Shown piece by piece: positions 3,732 to 14,854 of a stretch of DNA of 24,000 nt. Below the pieces are notes generated by a model. It ran no database searches. It worked only from the letters and a program-made list of their open reading frames with translations, and was not told the origin of the DNA. Made by a program: the position numbers and the translations under genes. The stretch is from Acidimicrobiales bacterium (GTDB lineage: Bacteria > Actinomycetota > Acidimicrobiia > Acidimicrobiales > Poriferisodalaceae). Within the stretch, counting starts at the first letter, position 1. The number at the start of each line of letters is the position of its first letter. The stretch is from the NCBI GenBank assembly GCA_965213525.1, contig OZ243889.1:1154860-1178859 (forward strand), written 5' to 3'.

Positions 3732-4912
3732 GCGGCCGCTCGCGGCGGGGCGGTCACCCCGTCGGCGTCGAACCAGGCGCCCGAACGCAGGCAGCCGACC
3801 GGCTCGAGCACCTGATCGGCCACGACGGTCTCCTTGCCGTCGCTCAGCTCGGTCGCCTCGGTGGCGATGCGCAGCACCGAGACGTGGGCCTCGCGACCGG
3901 GGGCGAGCGACCCGAGCTCGTCGAGGCGGCCGATGCTGCGGGCAGCGTTGACGGTTGCCATGGCGATGACGGCGGGCAGCTCGACGCCCAGGTGCCAGAT
4001 CTTGGACATGGTGGTGGCCAGGCTGAAGACGGGCCCGTCGAGGTTGAACACGTTGAGGTCGGTGGAGATGGTGTCGGGCAGGTAGCCCTGGTCCATCAGC
4101 CGGCGGGCGTCACGGAACCGGAAGTCGGTGCCGCTGTGGCCCACGTCGAGGCGCACGCCCCGATCGACGGCGTCACGGAACTCGGCGATCACCTTGCCGT
4201 CGGTGCCGATCATCCCGCCCGCACCACGGAAGGCGTGGGTGATGATGTCGCCGGGCCGCAGCGCCCGCAGCAGGTCCGGCGTCGAGATCGTCGGGGTGAA
4301 CGGGAACCGGCCGAGGTGCACCATCACCGGCTTGTCGCCAGCGACCTCCTGCGCCCCTTCGAGGAACGGCGAGCGGGACTCGTCCTCGCCGTCGACGTAG
4401 CAGGCCCGCACCTTGAACCCGACGGCGAGGTCGGCGTGGCGCTCGAAGCTCTCGCGTGCCGAGGCGATGTCGAGGTTGCGCAGATCGTTGGCGATCTCGA
4501 GCTTGTGGCAGATGAAGTCCTTGGTCGCCAGATAGAGCTGGTTGGCGTCCATGAACGCGTAGACCTTGGTCGACACGTCGGGGTGGTCGAGCCAGGCTCG
4601 CCGGCTGACGTCGAAGGTGGCGATGCCGCTGGTCCCGCCGTCGACGAGCACCGGCACGCCGTGGGCGACGCCCACCTGGTCGGGCTCGAGGCAGAAGTCG
4701 CCGAGGCCGGCCATCACGTGCACGTGGGCGTCGATGAGCCCGGGTGTGACCACCGATCCGGTGCAGTCGCGCACCTCGGCGTCGGGGTGGGCGGCGGCGG
4801 CGTCGGGGCCGACCCCGACGATCCGGCCATCGCTCACGACCACGTCGGCCGTCTCGTCGAGCTCGTTTGCCGGGTCGATGACCCGGCCGCCTGCCAGCAC
4901 CATGGTGTCCAT
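3728..4912 (-). CDS. Amidohydrolase-superfamily metallohydrolase (dihydroorotase/deacetylase-like)
   Basis: ORF track 3728..5146 (-). The first 78 codons are Arg-rich with no family similarity. The real start is taken as ATG 4912 (MDTMVLAGGRVIDPANE...), the usual N-terminal beta-strand of this fold. Motifs: PGLIDAHVHV (HxH), VGFKVRA (candidate carboxylated Lys), VMVHLG, IITHAF, TISTDLN (Asp). Confidence 0.85.
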   Translation of the reverse strand: MDTMVLAGGRVIDPANELDETADVVVSDGRIVGVGPDAAAAHPDAEVRDCTGSVVTPGLIDAHVHVMAGLGDFCLEPDQVGVAHGVPVLVDGGTSGIATFDVSRRAWLDHPDVSTKVYAFMDANQLYLATKDFICHKLEIANDLRNLDIASARESFERHADLAVGFKVRACYVDGEDESRSPFLEGAQEVAGDKPVMVHLGRFPFTPTISTPDLLRALRPGDIITHAFRGAGGMIGTDGKVIAEFRDAVDRGVRLDVGHSGTDFRFRDARRLMDQGYLPDTISTDLNVFNLDGPVFSLATTMSKIWHLGVELPAVIAMATVNAARSIGRLDELGSLAPGREAHVSVLRIATEATELSDGKETVVADQVLEPVGCLRSGAWFDADGVTAPPRAAA

Positions 4913-5019
4913 GGGCGCACCATATGCAGCGAGGGTTGCGCTTGCGTCACGGGCTCCTGCACCCGTTCTTTCGCAGCCGGCCCCGTCGTCGTGGCCCTCG
5001 GCGTGCGAGTGGCGCCGCC

Positions 5020-5421
5020 TCAGGTGCGCCAGCTCGCCCGGGGATCGGCCTCGGGTCCCTCCGCGTCGCCGGTGCGCACGTACCACTCCCAACGGGTGCC
5101 GTCGGGGCCGTCGAGCCACGTCTCGGTCTTGGTGGCGAAGCAGCACACGGCGTCGGCGACGCCGGTGGTGTCGATGCCCACGCCCGAGAGGCGCTGCTCA
5201 GCGGCCACCACCTCCTCGGCGGTCTCGGTCTCGACGCCGAGGTGGTTCAGCGAGCCGCTCGGGCCTGCACCCTCGAACAGCACGAGCTTGAGGGGTGGTT
5301 CGGCGATCGCGAAGTTGGCGTACCCGTCGCGGATCTTGGCCGGTTCGGTGGCGAACAGCCGGGAGTAGAAGTCGACGGCTGCGTCGAGGTCATCGACGTT
5401 CAGGGCGAGCTGCAGGCGCAC
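5020..5421 (-). CDS. arsI: ArsI/CadI-family VOC (glyoxalase-fold) metalloenzyme, putative C-As lyase
   Basis: ORF track 5020..5493 (-). The start is taken at GTG 5421, with a GGAAGGA SD 5 nt upstream. The sequence VRLQLALNVDDLDAAVDFYSRLFATEPAKIRDGYANFAIAEPPLKLVLFEGAG..LNHLGVE....DAVCCFATKTETWLDGPDGTRWEWY matches the ArsI/CadI family, including the vicinal Cys-Cys pair and candidate Gln/His/Glu metal ligands. Confidence 0.85.
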   Translation of the reverse strand: MRLQLALNVDDLDAAVDFYSRLFATEPAKIRDGYANFAIAEPPLKLVLFEGAGPSGSLNHLGVETETAEEVVAAEQRLSGVGIDTTGVADAVCCFATKTETWLDGPDGTRWEWYVRTGDAEGPEADPRASWRT

Positions 5422-5522
5422 GGTGGTCCTTCCGGAGGCGACAGCGGGCGACCGACGATCGCCTCGCAACGATGGTGTTCGATCGCTTCGCATCTACGCG
5501 CTTGGCATCGATGGTGATCGAT
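5422..5522. promoter_or_regulatory. Divergent arsI / arsR control region with a candidate ArsR operator
   Basis: This is a 101-nt gap between divergent starts. It contains four GCATC(G) motifs (about 5490, 5505, 5528, 5536; the last two lie beyond the 5522 feature end and fall inside arsR if it starts at 5523). It also has two ATCGAT palindromes (5507-5512, 5517-5522) and an outer inverted pair TTCGAT (5478-5483) / ATCGAA (5538-5543). No -10/-35 assignment was attempted. Confidence 0.35.
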
Positions 5523-5930
5523 ATGTTGCATCGTCGCATCGAAGGCTGTCAATATGTCGTCGTGGCTGGCGAGGACGACGTGCGGCCGTGGTGCTGCCCA
5601 CCCCTCACCACCGAGGTGCTCGACGCACACCACGCCGACGAGCTGGCCGGCGTGATGAAGGCGCTCGCCGATCCCGTGCGGCTGCGCCTGGTGTCCATCG
5701 TCGCCAACGCCGCCTCCGGCGAGGTGTGCGCATGTGACCTCCCCGCTCTCGTGGGTCGATCACAGCCCACCGTCAGCCACCACCTCGCTCAGCTGGTCGC
5801 CGCCGGGGTGCTCGAGCGCTCGCAGCGGGGTCGGTGGGCCTGGTTCCACCTGCGACCCGGGCGGTTGCAGGCCCTGTCCGAGCTGCTCGATGCGACCGCA
5901 GCGACAGCCCGCTCCCCCGCCGACGCCTGA
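5523..5930 (+). CDS. arsR: ArsR/SmtB-family metalloregulator
   Basis: ORF track 5295..5930 (+), trimmed to ATG 5523. In-frame GTG 5562 or GTG 5580 (GAGGA 4 nt upstream) are alternative starts. Motifs: ALADPVRLRLVSIV, EVCACDL (a variant of ELCVCDL), SQPTVSHHLAQLVAAGVL (HTH). An N-terminal WCCPPL Cys pair resembles the corynebacterial-type As(III) site. Confidence 0.85.
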   Translation: MLHRRIEGCQYVVVAGEDDVRPWCCPPLTTEVLDAHHADELAGVMKALADPVRLRLVSIVANAASGEVCACDLPALVGRSQPTVSHHLAQLVAAGVLERSQRGRWAWFHLRPGRLQALSELLDATAATARSPADA

Positions 5931-6043
5931 CCTCCATCCCGCAGCTCTCGGGGGCCTCGCCGACGATGCGATCACCGACGCTGCCGGCCTCCCCATCGCA
6001 ACTGACCGCCCTGCAGACACCACCACCGCCGAAGGAACCTGCG

Positions 6044-6529
6044 ATGACCTCGCCCGAACCGCCCCGCCCCGCCACCGATCCGACCCCGACCGGCTCGCCC
6101 GCCCCGACCGGAGCACCGGCCCCACAGCGACCCACCGTGCTGTTCCTCTGCGTCCACAACGCCGGCCGGTCCCAGATGGCCGCGGGGTGGCTCCGGCACC
6201 TGGCGGACGAAGCCATCGAGGTCCGCTCCGGTGGATCCGAACCTGCTGGTGAGCTCAACCCGGCGGCGGTGACGGCGATGGCCGAGGTCGGCGTGGACCT
6301 CACCGGCGAGGCGCCGCGGCGCTGGGACGACGCCGAGGTGCGAGCGGCCGACGTCGTGGTCACCATGGGCTGCGGGGACAGCTGCCCGATCGTGCCCGGC
6401 GTGCGCTACGAGGACTGGAACCTCACCGACCCCGCCGAGCAGCCGGTCGAGGTGGTCCGGGAGGTCCGTGACGAGATCCGCCGGCGGGTCGAGGTCCTGG
6501 CGCTCAGCCTCGGGGTCGGCCCGGCGTGA
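6044..6529 (+). CDS. arsC: Arsenate reductase, low-molecular-weight phosphatase type
   Basis: ORF track 5834..6529 (+), trimmed to ATG 6044, with a GAAGGAA SD at 6031-6037. P-loop CVHNAGRS (CX5R-S): TVLFLCVHNAGRSQMAAGW. Downstream Cys pair in VVTMGCGDSCP, followed by EDWNLTDP. About 30 aa of Pro/Thr-rich sequence form an N-terminal extension. Confidence 0.9.
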   Translation: MTSPEPPRPATDPTPTGSPAPTGAPAPQRPTVLFLCVHNAGRSQMAAGWLRHLADEAIEVRSGGSEPAGELNPAAVTAMAEVGVDLTGEAPRRWDDAEVRAADVVVTMGCGDSCPIVPGVRYEDWNLTDPAEQPVEVVREVRDEIRRRVEVLALSLGVGPA

Positions 6530-7296
6530 GGGCCGGCGCCCGGGTGGACGGGTCGTGGCGCCCCGACCTCCGGCGCCTGACCGCCGAGCTCGTCGGCACG
6601 GCGTTCCTGCTCGCTGCGGTGGTGGGCTCGGGCATCATGGCCGAGCAGCTCACCGACGACGTCGGCCTGCAGCTGCTCCAGAACGCCTTGGCCACCGCCG
6701 GGGTGCTGACCGCGCTGATCCTGGCGCTCGGCCCGGCCTCGGGCGCCCACTTCAACCCGGTGGTCACCCTGGCCGACCGCATCTTCGGGGGCATGGACAC
6801 CCCCACCGCGGCGTCCTACGTCGTCGCCCAGGTCGCCGGCGGGGTGCTCGGCGTGCTCGTCGCCAACGCGATGTTCGACCTGTCGGTCATCGACTGGTCC
6901 ACCACGACGCGCTCTGGTGCTCACCTGGTGCTGGCCGAGGGGGTGGCCACGATCGGGCTGCTGTTGGTGATCTTCGGGGTCGTGCGATCGGGCCGGCCGA
7001 TGCTGGCCGCGTTCTCGGTGGGCGGCTACATCGCCGGCGCCTACTACTTCACGTCCTCGACGAGCTTCGCCAACCCGGCGGTCACCGTCGCCCGCACGTT
7101 CTCGGACACCTTCGCCGGCATCGAGCCCTCTTCGGCCCCGGCCTTCGTCGCCGCCCAGCTGGGCGCCACGATCCTCGCCGTGGCCCTGATCCGGGTGATC
7201 TACCCCGACATCTCCGACGTCGCCGACCAGGTCATCGTCCCCCATGGCGACACCGCCGCCCACGAAGAGGTCGAGGTCGAGGCCGAGCCGCCGTAA
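6526..7296 (+). CDS. MIP-family aquaglyceroporin (probable arsenite channel, AqpS/GlpF-like)
   Basis: ORF track 6526..7296 (+), 256 aa. It has two half-helix boxes, SGAHFNPVVT (NPV) and SFANPAVT (NPA), and six hydrophobic segments. The GTG start overlaps the arsC stop (GTGA at 6526-6529). Confidence 0.9.
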   Translation: MRAGARVDGSWRPDLRRLTAELVGTAFLLAAVVGSGIMAEQLTDDVGLQLLQNALATAGVLTALILALGPASGAHFNPVVTLADRIFGGMDTPTAASYVVAQVAGGVLGVLVANAMFDLSVIDWSTTTRSGAHLVLAEGVATIGLLLVIFGVVRSGRPMLAAFSVGGYIAGAYYFTSSTSFANPAVTVARTFSDTFAGIEPSSAPAFVAAQLGATILAVALIRVIYPDISDVADQVIVPHGDTAAHEEVEVEAEPP

Positions 7297-7316
7297 GCCG
7301 CTGTGGGCCTGCGTGG

Positions 7317-7390
7317 GCGGCACCGAGGTGACCGGGCCGACGTGCGCGACACCGAGGTGATCGGGTCTGGGCGACACCGAGGTGATCGGG
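7317..7390. repeat. Three 20-nt intergenic direct repeats (GCGRCACCGAGGTGAYCGGG)
   Basis: Copies at 7317-7336 (GCGGCACCGAGGTGACCGGG), 7346-7365 and 7371-7390 (both GCGACACCGAGGTGATCGGG). A degenerate fourth copy, CGGTGAGGTGTTCATCGG, lies at 7411-7428. The array sits between the aquaporin stop (7296) and the heliorhodopsin start (7505). Confidence 0.85.
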
Positions 7391-7504
7391 CCGAGGTCCC
7401 AAGCCGTCGTCGGTGAGGTGTTCATCGGCGCCCGGCGGGGGACGACGCCCTGACGGTCCGCCCGACGATCCCGTCCAGGTGACCGCGATGGAGGGATCCA
7501 CGCC

Positions 7505-8293
7505 ATGACCACCGCCACCGCCACCAGGAACGACGCCGTCGCGTCGGGCGTCACGCCGGATCGGCTGGGTGATCTGCGCCGTTGGAACCTCGGGCTCACC
7601 GCGTTGCACGCCGTGCAGGCCGTCGTCGTCGTCGTCCTGGCGAGCGACTTCGCCGTCACCCTCACCTCGACGTATCCGGACGGTCCGCCCGGGACGAGGA
7701 CCCCCCAGCCAGCCGAGCTCTTCGACGTGCGCATCGGAGCGGCGATCGCGGTGTTCCTCGGGCTCGCCGCCCTCGACCACCTCCTCACCGCCACCGTCGC
7801 CCGCCAGACCTACGAATCCGACCTCCGGGACGGCATCAACCGGTTCCGCTGGGTCGAGTACTCCTTCAGTGCCACGCTGATGGTGCTGCTCATCGCCTCC
7901 TACGCCGGCATCACCGACATCACCGGGGTCGTCGCCATCGCCGGGGCGAACGTGGCGATGATCCTGTTCGGCTGGCTGCAGGAGCGGATGAACCCGCCGG
8001 GGCGGGCGACGACGACGATGACGCCGTTCTGGTTCGGCGTCCTGGTCGGCCTCGCCCCGTGGGTGGCGATCGCCGTCAACCTCTTCGGCGCCGACACCGT
8101 GCCCAACTTCGTCTACGGGATCTTCTTCGCCCAGCTCGTGTTCTTCTTCAGCTTCGGGCTGAACCAGTGGCTGCAGTACCGCGGGGTCTGGCGGTGGTCG
8201 GACTACGCCTTTGGCGAGAAGGCGTACCTGGTGCTGAGCCTGGGCGCCAAGTCGGTGCTGGCCTGGCAGATCTTCGGCGGATCGCTGAACTGA
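7505..8293 (+). CDS. Heliorhodopsin (retinal-binding seven-TM photoreceptor, inverted topology family)
   Basis: ORF track 7505..8293 (+), 262 aa, with a GGAGGGA SD at 7490-7496. There is block-by-block similarity to heliorhodopsin 48C12 as I remember it. Blocks: LHAVQAVVVVVLASDFAVTLTSTYPDGPPGT; AVFLGLAALDH; NRFRWVEYSFSATLMVLLIA (counterion Glu in RWVEYS); NVAMILFGWLQE; TPFWFGVLVGLAPW; NFVYGIFFAQLVFFFSFGLNQWLQYRG; EKAYLVLSLGAKSVLAWQIFGGSL (Schiff-base Lys in SLGAKS). Confidence 0.9.
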   Translation: MTTATATRNDAVASGVTPDRLGDLRRWNLGLTALHAVQAVVVVVLASDFAVTLTSTYPDGPPGTRTPQPAELFDVRIGAAIAVFLGLAALDHLLTATVARQTYESDLRDGINRFRWVEYSFSATLMVLLIASYAGITDITGVVAIAGANVAMILFGWLQERMNPPGRATTTMTPFWFGVLVGLAPWVAIAVNLFGADTVPNFVYGIFFAQLVFFFSFGLNQWLQYRGVWRWSDYAFGEKAYLVLSLGAKSVLAWQIFGGSLN

Positions 8294-8330: not shown

Positions 8331-9383
8331 GTGGCGACACGGGTGATCCAGTGGGGCAGCGGCAACGTGGGCCGCAAGGCCATCGCCGCGGTGGCGGCGC
8401 GACCTGACCTCGAGCTGGTGGGCCTGATGGTGACCGATCCCGCCAAGGTCGGGCGCGACGCCGGTGAGCTGGCCGGCATCGACACGCTCGGGGTGGCCGC
8501 CACCGACAGCCTCGACGAGCTCGTGGCCCTCGACGCCGACGTGGTGCTGCACATGCCGCTGCCGTCGCTGGTGCACGGCGACGACCCCGGCGCCGACCTC
8601 GACGTGTTCTGCCGCCTGCTCGCCGGCGGCGCCCACGTCGTGACCACGGTCGGGTACATGTACCCGTCGGTGCACGGCGACGAGGTGATGGGCCGCCTCA
8701 CCGAGGCCTGCCAGACCGGCGGGACGGCGTTCCACGGAACCGGAGCCAACCCGGGCTGGTTCGGCGACGTGGTGCCGCTGGTCATGTCGGGGCTGTCGCT
8801 GTGCATCGACCGCATCTCGGTCACCGAGATCAGCAGCTTCCAGCACTACCCGTCGCCCGAGATCATGTTCGACATGATGAACTTCGGGCGCACGCCGGCC
8901 GAGTTCGACGCCGTCTCGGCCCGTCACCGGGGCTGGCTCGACGGCTTGTTCACCGAAGCGGTCCAGATGGTCGCCGACGGCCTCGGCCTCGACGTCGACG
9001 GCGTGTCCTCAGGGCTCGAGACGTGGGTCACCGACACCGATCTTGACACCGCAGCCGGCCGAGTCGGTGCCGGGACGGTGGCGGGCCAGCGGTGGAACTG
9101 GCAGGCGACCATCGACGGCGAGCCCGTGGTCACCCAGGAGACGGTGTGGCGGATGCACGACGACGCGGCCCCGGAGTGGCCCCGTGGCGACTGGTCGATC
9201 GTGATCGACGGTGAGCCCCGCATGCGCCTGTCCCTGCCCCACGGCTGGAACCGCGACGTGTTGGCCTCCACGGCCGCCCACGCCGTGAACGTCATCGGTT
9301 ACCTGGTCGACCGACCGCCCGGCGTCGCCACCTTCTTGGACCTGCCCGTCGTCGCCGGCCGGGGTGCCCACCTCCGCCGCTGA
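8331..9383 (+). CDS. DapB-like NAD(P)-binding oxidoreductase (dihydrodipicolinate reductase N-terminal fold / amine dehydrogenase-like)
   Basis: ORF track 8331..9383 (+), 350 aa, GTG start. The N-terminal Rossmann signature RVIQWGSGNVGRKAIAAV is typical of the family usually annotated as dihydrodipicolinate reductase-like. The gene starts 37 nt after heliorhodopsin on the same strand. The exact start is uncertain; GTG 8343 is also possible. Confidence 0.7.
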   Translation: MATRVIQWGSGNVGRKAIAAVAARPDLELVGLMVTDPAKVGRDAGELAGIDTLGVAATDSLDELVALDADVVLHMPLPSLVHGDDPGADLDVFCRLLAGGAHVVTTVGYMYPSVHGDEVMGRLTEACQTGGTAFHGTGANPGWFGDVVPLVMSGLSLCIDRISVTEISSFQHYPSPEIMFDMMNFGRTPAEFDAVSARHRGWLDGLFTEAVQMVADGLGLDVDGVSSGLETWVTDTDLDTAAGRVGAGTVAGQRWNWQATIDGEPVVTQETVWRMHDDAAPEWPRGDWSIVIDGEPRMRLSLPHGWNRDVLASTAAHAVNVIGYLVDRPPGVATFLDLPVVAGRGAHLRR

Positions 9384-9437: not shown

Positions 9438-12191
<2,754 letters not shown>

Positions 12192-12270
12192 CTCGGCCTC
12201 CCCCGTCGCGTCCACGTAGGCGGGCTCATCCTCCCATGCCCGGGCTCCACCTGGCCCGCCCCCCGGCTCC

Positions 12271-13184: not shown

Positions 13185-13305
13185 CTGACGACCGGACCGC
13201 CTGGCCGCCTGAACCGCCTGACGACCGGACCGCCTGGCCGCCTGGCCGCCTGAACCGCCTGACGACCGGACCGCCTGACCGCCTGACCGGCTGACCGCTT
13301 GCCGG
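13185..13305. repeat. Intergenic tandem repeat array built from 9-nt CTGRMCGCC units with a 33-41-nt super-unit
   Basis: CTGACGACCGGACCGC recurs at 13185, 13218 and 13259. Each copy is followed by runs of CTGGCCGCC / CTGAACGCC / CTGACCGCC / CTGACCGGC. The array lies in the 282-nt divergent gap between the PGPGW gene (start 13148) and the P450 gene (start 13431). Confidence 0.85.
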
Positions 13306-13430
13306 CCGGTGATCCATGCGAGCGGGCCGTCACCCATGTGGCCGTCGCCGTCCGATGCGTGGTGTCATCGGGTCGCGGGGCGCCGCTCAGGATGGGGCCT
13401 CGCGCGCCGAGCGACGAGGACGACCACACC

Positions 13431-14854
13431 ATGACCACCGTGACCAGACCGACGATCGACCTCGTCGATCCGGCCAGCTTCGCCGGCAGCCAGCCCCACG
13501 CCGCCTTCGATTGGCTGCGTGAGCACGAGCCCGTGCACCGCCACGGCGAACCCGACGGTCCCGGGTTCTGGGCGGTGACCCGCCACGACCTGGTCACGGT
13601 GGTGGGCAAGGACGCCGGACGGTTCTCCTCTGAGCCGACGATCATGTTGGCCGACCCCGACGAGGCCACCGATCTCGGTGAGCACCAGATGATGTTGATG
13701 TCTGACCCGCCCTTGCACACCCGGATGCGGCGCCTCGTCAGCCGCCGCTTCACCCCCAAGGCCGTGCGGGCCCTGGACGGATCGATCGCCCAGCTGGCGA
13801 CCCGCATCGTCGACGGCGTGATCGAGCGGGGCGGATGCGACCTCGTCACCGACCTGGCCGGTGAGATGCCGAGCTTCGTCATCGCCGACCTGCTCGGCAT
13901 CCCCCTGGAGGACGGACGAGCGCTGTACCACCACACCGAGGCGCTGCACTCCTCACCAGAGGTCGTCGGCATCGAGGCCCAACGCGCGGCGTTCGGCCAG
14001 ATGATGGCCTACAGCCAGCAGGTAAGCGGGGCGGATGCGACCTCGTCACCGACCTGGCCGGTGAGATGCCGAGCTTCGTCATCGCCGACCTGCTCGGCAT
14101 CCCCCTGGAGGACGGACGAGCGCTGTACCACCACACCGAGGCGCTGCACTCCTCACCAGAGGTCGTCGGCATCGAGGCCCAACGCGCGGCGTTCGGCCAG
14201 ATGATGGCCTACAGCCAGCAGGTCTACGCCGAACGGACCGCTGACCCGGGCGATGATCTCGCCTCGCTCATCGCCACCGGCCGGGTCGACGAGCGCCCGG
14301 TCGACGAGATCGACTTCTTCTTGTGGTTCCTGCTGCTCGTCGACGCCGGTGGTGACACCACTCGCAACCTCGTGGGCGGCGGCATGCACGCCCTGTTCGA
14401 GCGACCCGACCAGCTGCGGTGGCTCGCCGAGGATCCGCGAGGACGTCTGCCCCGGGCGGTGGAGGAGCTGCTCCGCTTCGTCAGCCCGGTCATCCACATG
14501 CGCCGGACCGCCACCGCGGACACCGAGCTCGGCGGGCAGCACATCGAGGCCGGCGACAAGGTCGTCATGTTCTACGGGGCGGCCAACCGCGATCCGGCGG
14601 TCTTCGATGACCCCCACCTCCTCGACCTCGGGCGTGACCCCAACCCCCACGTGGCCTTCGGTGGTGGTGGTCCGCACTTCTGCCTCGGGGCCCACCTCGC
14701 CCGCACCGAGATCATCGCCTTGATGGGTGAGATCCTCACCCGCCTCGACGATCTCGAGCCCGCCGGCGAACCGGGGTGGATGGCGTCGAACTTCATCTAC
14801 GGGCCGACCACCCTGCCGGTGCGCTTCACCCCGGCGACTCGCACCGTCGCCTGA
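13431..14854 (+). pseudogene. Cytochrome P450 interrupted by a frameshifting 200-bp tandem duplication
   Basis: The gene is split across two track ORFs. ORF 13299..14204 has its real start at ATG 13431, with GAGGA at 13415-13419 (MTTVTRPTIDLVDPASF...). ORF 14066..14854 is the second piece. The N-half reads correctly to ...MMAYSQQV, then leaves the frame. The C-half carries the I-helix VDAGGDTTRN, EELLRF (ExxR) and the heme loop FGGGGPHFCLGAHLAR. The span is 1424 nt, not a multiple of 3. Removing 200 nt gives 1224 nt, a typical 407-aa P450. Confidence 0.85.
13825..14223. repeat. Perfect 199-bp direct tandem duplication (13825-14023 and 14025-14223) separated by a single A (14024)
   Basis: A base-by-base comparison of the two copies (AGCGGGGCGGATGCGACCTCGTCACC...ATGATGGCCTACAGCCAGCAGGT) shows no mismatch. 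Both copies encode GGCDLVTDLAGEMPSFVIADLLGIPLEDGRALYHHTEALHSSPEVVGIEAQRAAFGQMMAYSQQV, in different frames. Confidence 0.95.

Follow-up and report, generated by a model that had tools for sequence, protein, structure and literature searches.

The gene at positions 7505..8293 (+ strand) of the 24,000-nucleotide stretch of Acidimicrobiales contig OZ243889.1 analysed here (referred to as a whole as the window) encodes a protein of 262 amino acids, intact and full length from ATG to TGA, which is virtually certain to be a genuine heliorhodopsin (HeR). It is of the 48C12-like bacterial type and comes from an Acidimicrobiia (Ilumatobacteraceae-like) actinobacterium. By analogy with characterised homologues we propose, with a probability of roughly 0.6, that it is a slow-cycling, non-transporting HeR with a sensory or regulatory role.

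The protein covers the Pfam model PF18761 (Heliorhodopsin) completely (E = 3.7e-98, 328 bits against a cut-off of 26.7, model positions 1-242 of 242) and likewise the NCBIfam equivalog NF038020, ‘heliorhodopsin HeR’ (272 bits, cut-off 100, positions 1-244 of 244), and it aligns over nearly its full length with HeR 48C12 (6SU3, 6UH3 and 9LJJ; E = 2e-64) and with TaHeR (6IS6; E = 8e-47). An earlier, sequence-only reading of this DNA had placed the open reading frame (ORF) exactly at these coordinates and had called it an intact heliorhodopsin, staking the call on a significant profile match and on the register of its counterion Glu and Schiff-base Lys; the call holds, because the matches lie well above the curated cut-offs and both residues are in register with those of 48C12 and TaHeR. 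The peptide blocks that it quoted are all present in the product, namely LHAVQ (residues 34-38), TSTYPDGPPGT (54-64), ALDHLL (89-94), RFRWVEYSFS (113-122) and SLGAKSVLAWQIF (245-257). In a window of ~72% GC many spurious ORFs on other frames overlap the gene, and yet we take the heliorhodopsin frame as the coding one because the GC content of its third and second codon positions (GC3 0.95, GC2 0.48) is the coding signature of a ~72% GC genome. A Shine-Dalgarno-like GGAGGG (7490..7495, +), which may serve in translation initiation, lies ~10 nucleotides before the ATG.

An AlphaFold2 model built from 31 sequences (pLDDT 79.4) predicts seven transmembrane helices and, in the long loop between helices A and B, the β-hairpin typical of HeRs. 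This loop (residues 50-76, 7652..7732, +) includes TSTYPDGPPGT, its predicted strands span residues 50-55 and 70-76, and alignment A1 shows no variation at G60, P61, P62 or G63. In a Foldseek search of the model against the Protein Data Bank (PDB) the ten best matches were all HeRs (TM-score 0.71-0.77, E < 3e-13), and type-1 rhodopsins appeared only after a gap, at E > 0.04. Counting Lys and Arg between the modelled helix boundaries gave 12 on the side of the N-terminus and the BC, DE and FG loops versus 2 on the side of the AB, CD and EF loops and the C-terminus, a bias that fits the inverted topology with the N-terminus inside under the positive-inside rule, as had been anticipated from the sequence.

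The functional residues were placed by HMMER alignment and cross-checked by an independent MAFFT alignment with 71 relatives. The retinal Schiff-base lysine is K249 in helix G (AAG, 8249..8251, +), equivalent to K241 of 48C12 and K238 of TaHeR, and Lys occupies this column in 70 of the 71 genome relatives and in all 119 protein relatives. Its single counterion is E118 in helix C (GAG, 7856..7858, +), equivalent to E107 and E108, respectively, with Glu in 71/71 relatives. The two conserved histidines that had been recognised in LHAVQ and ALDHLL are H35 (CAC, 7607..7609, +) and H92 (CAC, 7778..7780, +); they align with H23 and H80 of 48C12, which belong to the Schiff-base cavity and to the proton relay. 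Together with N28, Y103, N112, R115, Y119 and E238 they make up a cavity in which all residues are identical to those of 48C12, and S245 is in register with S237 of 48C12, the position of Asp212 in bR. According to Kovalev et al. (PMC7049168), 17 polar or charged residues matter to the structure of HeRs. Sixteen of these are identical in the window protein (in 48C12 numbering, H23, H80, N16, Y92, N101, R104, Y108 and E230 of the cavity, E107, S111 and S237, and the polar region of E149, Q216, Y226, W105 and Q213), leaving S76 as the only one that differs. The retinal pocket (M141, I142, F206, F72, M115 and N138) and the HeR-specific P172, the π-bulge proline, are identical as well.

Overall, the protein shares 44-45% identity over 245 aligned residues with 48C12, which was obtained from an actinobacterial fosmid of Lake Kinneret (PDB 6SU3, 6SU4, 6UH3 and 9LJJ), and the modelled fold resembles it closely (TM-score 0.74-0.77), including the long A-B β-hairpin. 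It differs from 48C12 in a disordered N-terminus that is longer by ~12 residues and in the replacements of S76 by A88, L202 by Q210, N207 by F215, P40 by T52, Y179 (a dimer contact) by N192, L227 by A235 and A210 by G218. TaHeR, from the Thermoplasmatales archaeon SG8-52-1 (PDB 6IS6, 7U55 and 7CLJ), is more distant, with ~35% identity; K238, E108 and the His pair are in register and the predicted fold is alike (TM-score 0.71-0.75), whereas TaHeR carries Met at the position of Q213, Ile at that of Q210, Ser at that of A88 and a shorter A-B loop sequence.

None of these replacements relative to 48C12 is private to this gene, each being in the majority or fixed within its clade. The Ser-to-Ala exchange at position 76 (A88, GCC, 7766..7768, +) is a natural variant of the whole clade, Ala being found in 71/71 genome relatives and 119/119 protein relatives. 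Ser76 hydrogen-bonds the counterion and its mutation to Ala in 48C12 red-shifts the absorption by ~6 nm; from quantum mechanics/molecular mechanics calculations its reorientation was proposed to be required before the Schiff base can pass its proton to Glu107 (PMC9726877). A paper on colour tuning (PMC7807009) holds nothing on positions 76 or 207. Q210 (CAG, 8132..8134, +) takes the place of 48C12 L202, of TaHeR I199 and of E191, the gate residue of the proton-transporting viral V2HeR3. Gln is found in this column in 42 genome loci and 101 protein hits and Leu in 6 and 2; the remainder, 23/71 genome loci and 16/119 protein hits, have Glu, and all of these keep Phe at the position of V2HeR3 W195. 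The window protein has F214 at that position, as do all 71 relatives in having Phe there, and the adjoining F215, at the position of 48C12 N207 and TaHeR N204, is Phe in 65/71 and 104/119 relatives. Subfamily 1, the group of 48C12, is marked by Ser76, Ser111 and Ser237, by Gln213 and by a wholly hydrophobic interior of the extracellular half that includes Leu202 (PMC7049168). Of these marks the window protein possesses S122, S245 and Q221, but has A88 for Ser76 and Q210 for Leu202, in common with its clade.

The exact protein sequence is already present in public collections (NCBI/ENA) as a single-member cluster, and a word-seeded search, in which 8,000 candidates were scored, returned at least 4,415 homologues at E ≤ 1e-10. 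The best non-self matches are 83-84% identical and all carry PF18761, several being named ‘heliorhodopsin HeR [Acidimicrobiales bacterium]’ by NCBI. Among GTDB species representatives at least 338 genomes hold a relative, and the best 80 are nearly all from Acidimicrobiales, Ilumatobacteraceae or other Actinomycetota. The taxonomic placement has support beyond the HeR itself, as the closest homologues of the dehydrogenase encoded downstream of it also come from Ilumatobacter, Ilumatobacteraceae and Acidimicrobiales; the high-GC actinobacterial context suggested earlier is thus borne out. A distribution of HeRs restricted to monoderms has been reported and was disputed by Kovalev et al. (PMC7049168); with its closest relatives and those of its neighbour in the Acidimicrobiia (Actinomycetota), the gene would appear to have a monoderm host. 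Since the family is hosted mainly by Actinobacteria (PMC7049168, PMC8612252), Acidimicrobiia HeR clusters were already described (preprint of PMC8612252) and homologues are numerous, a heliorhodopsin in a high-GC actinobacterium is expected rather than surprising. The gene adds one uncharacterised member to a family of thousands for which several crystal structures and several functions have been reported, and the equivalog model of the NCBI annotation pipeline would name it automatically.

Based on these residues and on the homologues we propose that the product is a seven-helix membrane protein with a cytoplasmic N-terminus, in which all-trans retinal would be bound covalently to K249 and its protonated Schiff base balanced by E118. 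48C12 absorbs near 551 nm, and a pigment at ~550-560 nm would be expected here. Green light would isomerise the retinal, upon which the Schiff-base proton would pass to the water-filled cytoplasmic cavity formed by E118, H35, H92, N28, Y103, N112, R115, Y119, E238 and S245, to return over seconds with no net transport. The long-lived intermediate would meanwhile alter the Arg-rich cytoplasmic face (R100, R108, R113, R115, R161, R167, R226 and R230), and the altered face would modulate a cytoplasmic or membrane partner protein, as in other bacterial HeRs. The present analysis shows which family the protein belongs to, that its catalytic and structural residues are in register, which fold it is predicted to have and that its charges are distributed in keeping with the topology; that it binds retinal, cycles slowly without transport and modulates a partner is extended to it from homologues. 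We predict that it does not transport because Q210 corresponds to the E191Q state of V2HeR3 and because Phe214 replaces Trp195. Regulation of partners has several precedents: AbHeR binds and regulates glutamine synthetase, positively charged residues of its intracellular loops mediating the binding (PMC9529153), TfHeR binds and regulates photolyase (PMC9769723) and OcHeR modulates the ABC exporter OmrDE (PMC11109279). All three belong to the same family as the window HeR, which likewise has Arg-rich cytoplasmic loops. With these reports, and with proton transport reported for viral HeRs (PMC9448325), the earlier statement that the physiological role of heliorhodopsins is unresolved is now true only in part.

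The family assignment is contradicted by none of the observations, but several points weigh against a non-transporting sensory or regulatory HeR of this kind. As Ser76 is implicated in the first proton-transfer step, its replacement by Ala88 may mean that details of the photocycle differ from those of 48C12, and the same may follow from the polar Gln in the normally hydrophobic extracellular half; moreover, the mechanism that we suggest for this member of a clade of ~75-84% identity is taken from homologues outside that clade. The gene's surroundings offer no partner. The partner-regulating HeRs share operons with their partners, whereas the transcription unit of the window HeR contains neither a partner gene nor a histidine kinase. 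Shim et al. found co-transcribed neighbours for 173 of 448 helR genes and defined ten recurrent neighbour classes (PMC11109279), none of which is co-directional and adjacent in this unit. It lacks a glutamine synthetase, an NAD+ synthetase, a photolyase, MerR, TerC, an ABC exporter (the ABC transporter class), SDR, DUF2177 and DUF2238, and the only domain of the remaining class, α/β-hydrolase, forms the C-terminal part of a fusion protein encoded 1.1 kb downstream by a convergent gene on the opposite strand. In the whole 24-kb window no gene for a histidine kinase, response regulator, glutamine synthetase, photolyase or type-1 rhodopsin was found, nor any crt or blh gene.

It is conceivable that the protein harvests light with two chromophores, binding an exogenous xanthophyll as an antenna at a lateral fenestration, as Kornilov et al. 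proposed for most HeRs in a 2025 preprint (10.1101/2025.11.27.691015). Such an antenna would be compatible with a sensory role, and the proposed motif is present in F175 and F214 (48C12 F162 and F206), Gly182 (G169) and the non-bulky V179 and G218 (positions 166 and 210). We nevertheless consider it unlikely. The proposal comes from docking (10.1101/2025.11.27.691015), and the ‘conserved’ Asn beside the carotenoid, N207 in 48C12, is the bulky Phe215 here and Phe in 65/71 relatives, which could obstruct the groove; there are also no carotenoid genes in the window.

This last observation extends to the source of retinal itself. All 19 ORFs of the window with GC3 support were scanned against Pfam and, as noted before, none is a crt or blh gene. 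The only carotenoid-named match, to Lycopene_cycl on a Baeyer-Villiger monooxygenase (BVMO), sits among 13 overlapping FAD/NAD families, and we rejected it as a 28-bit cross-match to the FAD Rossmann fold. Among genomes whose only rhodopsin is a HeR, 1/381 had a complete de novo retinal pathway, 55% had a β-carotene oxygenase and 63% a retinol dehydrogenase, and Shihoya et al. were cited for the efficient capture of exogenous retinal by HeRs (10.1101/2021.02.01.429150). Since HeR-only genomes rarely encode the full pathway, the absence of crt and blh from 24 kb of a 3.3-Mb chromosome carries little weight. The source of the chromophore had earlier been described as open on account of this absence, which is normal for HeR-only genomes; presumably the organism either scavenges its retinal or makes it with genes elsewhere in the 3.3-Mb genome.

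The residues that set the Acidimicrobiia sequences apart, Ala76, Gln or Glu202 and Phe207, raise the thought that the clade is a functionally distinct subfamily of bacterial HeRs, whose Glu-bearing members might conduct ions. We regard this as decidedly unlikely, and it concerns the clade and not this gene alone. If it were true, the Ser76-dependent first step of proton transfer would be rewired in the Acidimicrobiia clade, the Glu-bearing sisters might be the first bacterial ion-conducting HeRs and the Gln form would be their non-conducting sensory counterpart. In any case this large clade supplies natural variants on which the proposed Ser76-dependent proton relay, and what heliorhodopsins need in order to conduct ions, could be tested, a modest lead for rhodopsin biophysicists. 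A Glu at the position of L202 was noted earlier by Kovalev et al. in subfamilies 2 and U8 (PMC7049168).

The gene immediately downstream (8331..9383, +, 350 amino acids, 37 nucleotides after the HeR stop codon) encodes an NAD(P)H amine dehydrogenase resembling 2,4-diaminopentanoate dehydrogenase. It has DapB_N and DAP_DH_C domains and scores 123 bits, far under the 400-bit cut-off of the 2,4-diaminopentanoate dehydrogenase equivalog, and its homologues go by the name ‘NAD(P)H-dependent amine dehydrogenase family protein’ at NCBI. Being co-directional with the HeR gene it may be co-transcribed with it, and one could envisage the HeR as a light-regulatory subunit of this Ord/DapB-like enzyme, in the manner of the AbHeR-glutamine synthetase or TfHeR-photolyase pairs. 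In favour of such a pair, the two genes lie on the same strand and the 37 nucleotides that separate them contain no terminator-like site. In the AbHeR operon the gene next after that of the HeR encodes a Rossmann-type oxidoreductase (Gfo/Idh/MocA), and a homologue of the dehydrogenase with 75% identity is found 1.5 kb from a different HeR gene. We tested the association of the two families in both directions. In the forward direction all window proteins were compared by tblastn with 80, then 83, HeR loci with up to 10 kb of flank on each side, first at E < 1e-10 with 40% coverage and then per domain at E < 1e-5. In the reverse direction 48 loci of the dehydrogenase (four from context look-ups and 44 from metagenomes, 324 kb in all) were examined for a HeR. 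No dehydrogenase homologue lies within 10 kb of the HeR gene in the 83 loci of its clade, and a HeR accompanies the dehydrogenase in only one of the 48 loci, where the genes are divergent and separated by two others; P450 neighbours are more frequent (6/48), and the ten recurrent neighbour classes do not include this enzyme. A regulatory subunit of this dehydrogenase is thus very unlikely, and the gene is not a conserved partner.

In the single locus in question (L084) the HeR gene (1651-2532, -) and the dehydrogenase gene (4001-5047, +) are 1.5 kb apart, the interval being occupied by a GHMP kinase gene and a TehB-like ORF. The dehydrogenase is the closest homologue of that in the window, whereas the HeR, of 293 amino acids and 47% identity to ours, belongs to another lineage, and the pairing is probably a coincidence. 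The P450 genes adjoining dehydrogenase homologues (L086, L087, L095, L097, L106 and L119) suggest that in its real context the enzyme serves oxidative catabolism or secondary metabolism rather than the sensing of light.

The other flanking genes fared no better in the forward test. Homologues of arsR, arsC, MIP, ArsI, the amine dehydrogenase, DUF3140 and PGPGW were found in none of the 83 HeR loci, even at E < 1e-5. Only two of the window proteins recurred there: a P450, beside the HeR gene in three loci (L004, L068 and L073), and the Abhydrolase_3 esterase, in two loci of a single organism (L081 and L082). The neighbourhood had been described as interpretable; this description has to be withdrawn, as no flanking gene recurs as a partner of the HeR. 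The context is idiosyncratic and gene order is uninformative on a signalling partner, in agreement with Kovalev et al., who saw no conserved transducer next to subfamily-1 HeRs (PMC7049168). The negative result is useful in itself: like most HeRs of the 48C12 type, this one has no conserved genomic partner, and its function cannot be guessed from gene order.

Clustering of the ORFs of the related loci showed that recurrent neighbours of the HeR gene are confined to sub-clades and that none of them is present in the window. In one sub-clade (L012, L022, L024, L025, L030 and L036) a protein of ~540 amino acids with an NAD-binding (NmrA/epimerase-like) domain and DUF2867 is encoded directly ahead, with an overlap of 4 bp between its stop codon and the start of the HeR gene, and a photolyase-related DPRP gene lies ~2.4 kb upstream of the HeR gene on the other strand (L016, L022-L025 and L059). 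The arrangement has the look of a genuine HeR operon, one that the window lacks. In another sub-clade (L032, L039, L053, L066, L077 and L078) a gene for the protein adenylyltransferase SelO is found ~1 kb upstream, and a protein with an FGE-sulfatase domain is encoded immediately upstream on the opposite strand. SelO is linked to redox-stress responses, and such a neighbour would fit the idea of Bulzu et al. that relates HeRs to oxidative stress.

Transport of protons, through a light-gated transporter or channel like V2HeR3, is a further alternative to the non-transporting role that we favour. V2HeR3 and the other proton-transporting viral HeRs are of the same family, and the window protein resembles them in the polar Q210 at the position of E191, within the half whose interior is hydrophobic throughout in 48C12 and TaHeR, and in having equivalents of E205 and E215 (Q224 and E238); moreover, Glu stands at the position of Q210 in roughly one quarter to one third of the sister sequences. 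Yet mutation of E191 to Gln abolished the photocurrent of V2HeR3, and Gln is what our protein carries at this ‘hallmark’ gate (PMC9448325). The V2HeR3 arrangement of a carboxylate at E191 with Trp at W195 is replaced here by Q210 and F214, and the Phe is shared by all 71 relatives. Furthermore, E191 alone was insufficient in EhHeR or McHeR (PMC9448325), and 48C12, the closest solved homologue, shows no transport (PMC7049168). The protein also falls into the bacterial 48C12-like clade, unlike V2HeR3 of the viral subfamily 2. We hold proton transport to be highly improbable and retain the sensory or regulatory reading.

Upstream of the HeR gene, positions 5020-7296 hold a complete and self-contained arsenic-resistance module of a commonly mobile type. 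It comprises a divergent gene for an ArsI/CadI metalloenzyme (5020-5493, -; 156 bits against an NCBIfam cut-off of 116), an ArsR-family helix-turn-helix regulator (~5601-5930), an LMWP-type arsenate reductase, arsC (~6131-6529), and a MIP-family channel (6526-7296, +) that overlaps arsC by 4 bp. A functional tie of the HeR to this module, be it modulation of the MIP channel or a regulation shared with arsenic resistance, is scarcely credible: although the MIP gene, on the same strand, ends 208 nucleotides before the HeR gene and no terminator-like site intervenes, and although modulation of a membrane transporter has a precedent in OmrDE (PMC11109279), the ars genes form a module of their own and arsR, arsC, MIP and ArsI are absent from the vicinity of the HeR in the 83 related loci at E < 1e-5.

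The 208 nucleotides between the MIP and HeR genes (7297..7504, +) are presumably where the promoter resides. They contain a tandem repeat (7305-7394) of three copies of ~25-29 bp with the core GACACCGAGGTGATCGGG at 7319, 7348 and 7373, which is non-random, as three copies were reached in 0/100 shuffles. As a regulatory element or RNA, however, the repeat is unsupported: Rfam gave no match in the window, the RNA fold of the region is no better than that of shuffled sequences (z = -0.17), no sigma-70-like promoter consensus or terminator was detected in the 208 nucleotides, and the motif was not found in 80 related loci. Within the HeR gene itself an antisense ‘shadow’ ORF (window positions 7900-8106, -) is open and apparently conserved in 40/72 loci. 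It accounts for an ORF of ~97 amino acids that seemed to be ‘adjacent’ to the HeR gene in these 40 loci and that we rejected as a small partner protein. The conservation of the shadow ORF is due to the high GC content and to the conserved sense frame of the HeR, and such an ORF can mislead automated analyses of gene context into reporting a small conserved neighbour.

Converging on the dehydrogenase is a gene for a fusion of a BVMO with an Abhydrolase_3 esterase (9438-12215, -, 925 amino acids). Its flavin monooxygenase part spans residues ~68-545 and the esterase, of the LipP1/hormone-sensitive-lipase family and above the NCBIfam LipP1 cut-off, residues ~614-900. As an esterase cleaves the kind of ester or lactone that a BVMO forms, the fusion may carry out successive steps. 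Its predicted N-terminus carries ~8 copies of a degenerate acidic repeat, ADESG, and the true start may be further downstream. Beyond it lie genes for DUF3140, a PGPGW protein and a P450, followed by unrelated catabolic genes. The P450 gene (~13431-14854, +) contains a perfect tandem duplication of 200 bp, with copies of 199 nucleotides at 13825-14023 and 14025-14223 that are 100% identical. Since 200 is not a multiple of three, the duplication breaks the gene into overlapping ORFs in two frames (13299-14204 and 14066-14854), and it represents either a very recent disruptive event, leaving a pseudogene, or an assembly artefact. Intact P450 homologues of 420 amino acids are encoded beside the HeR gene in L068 and L073.

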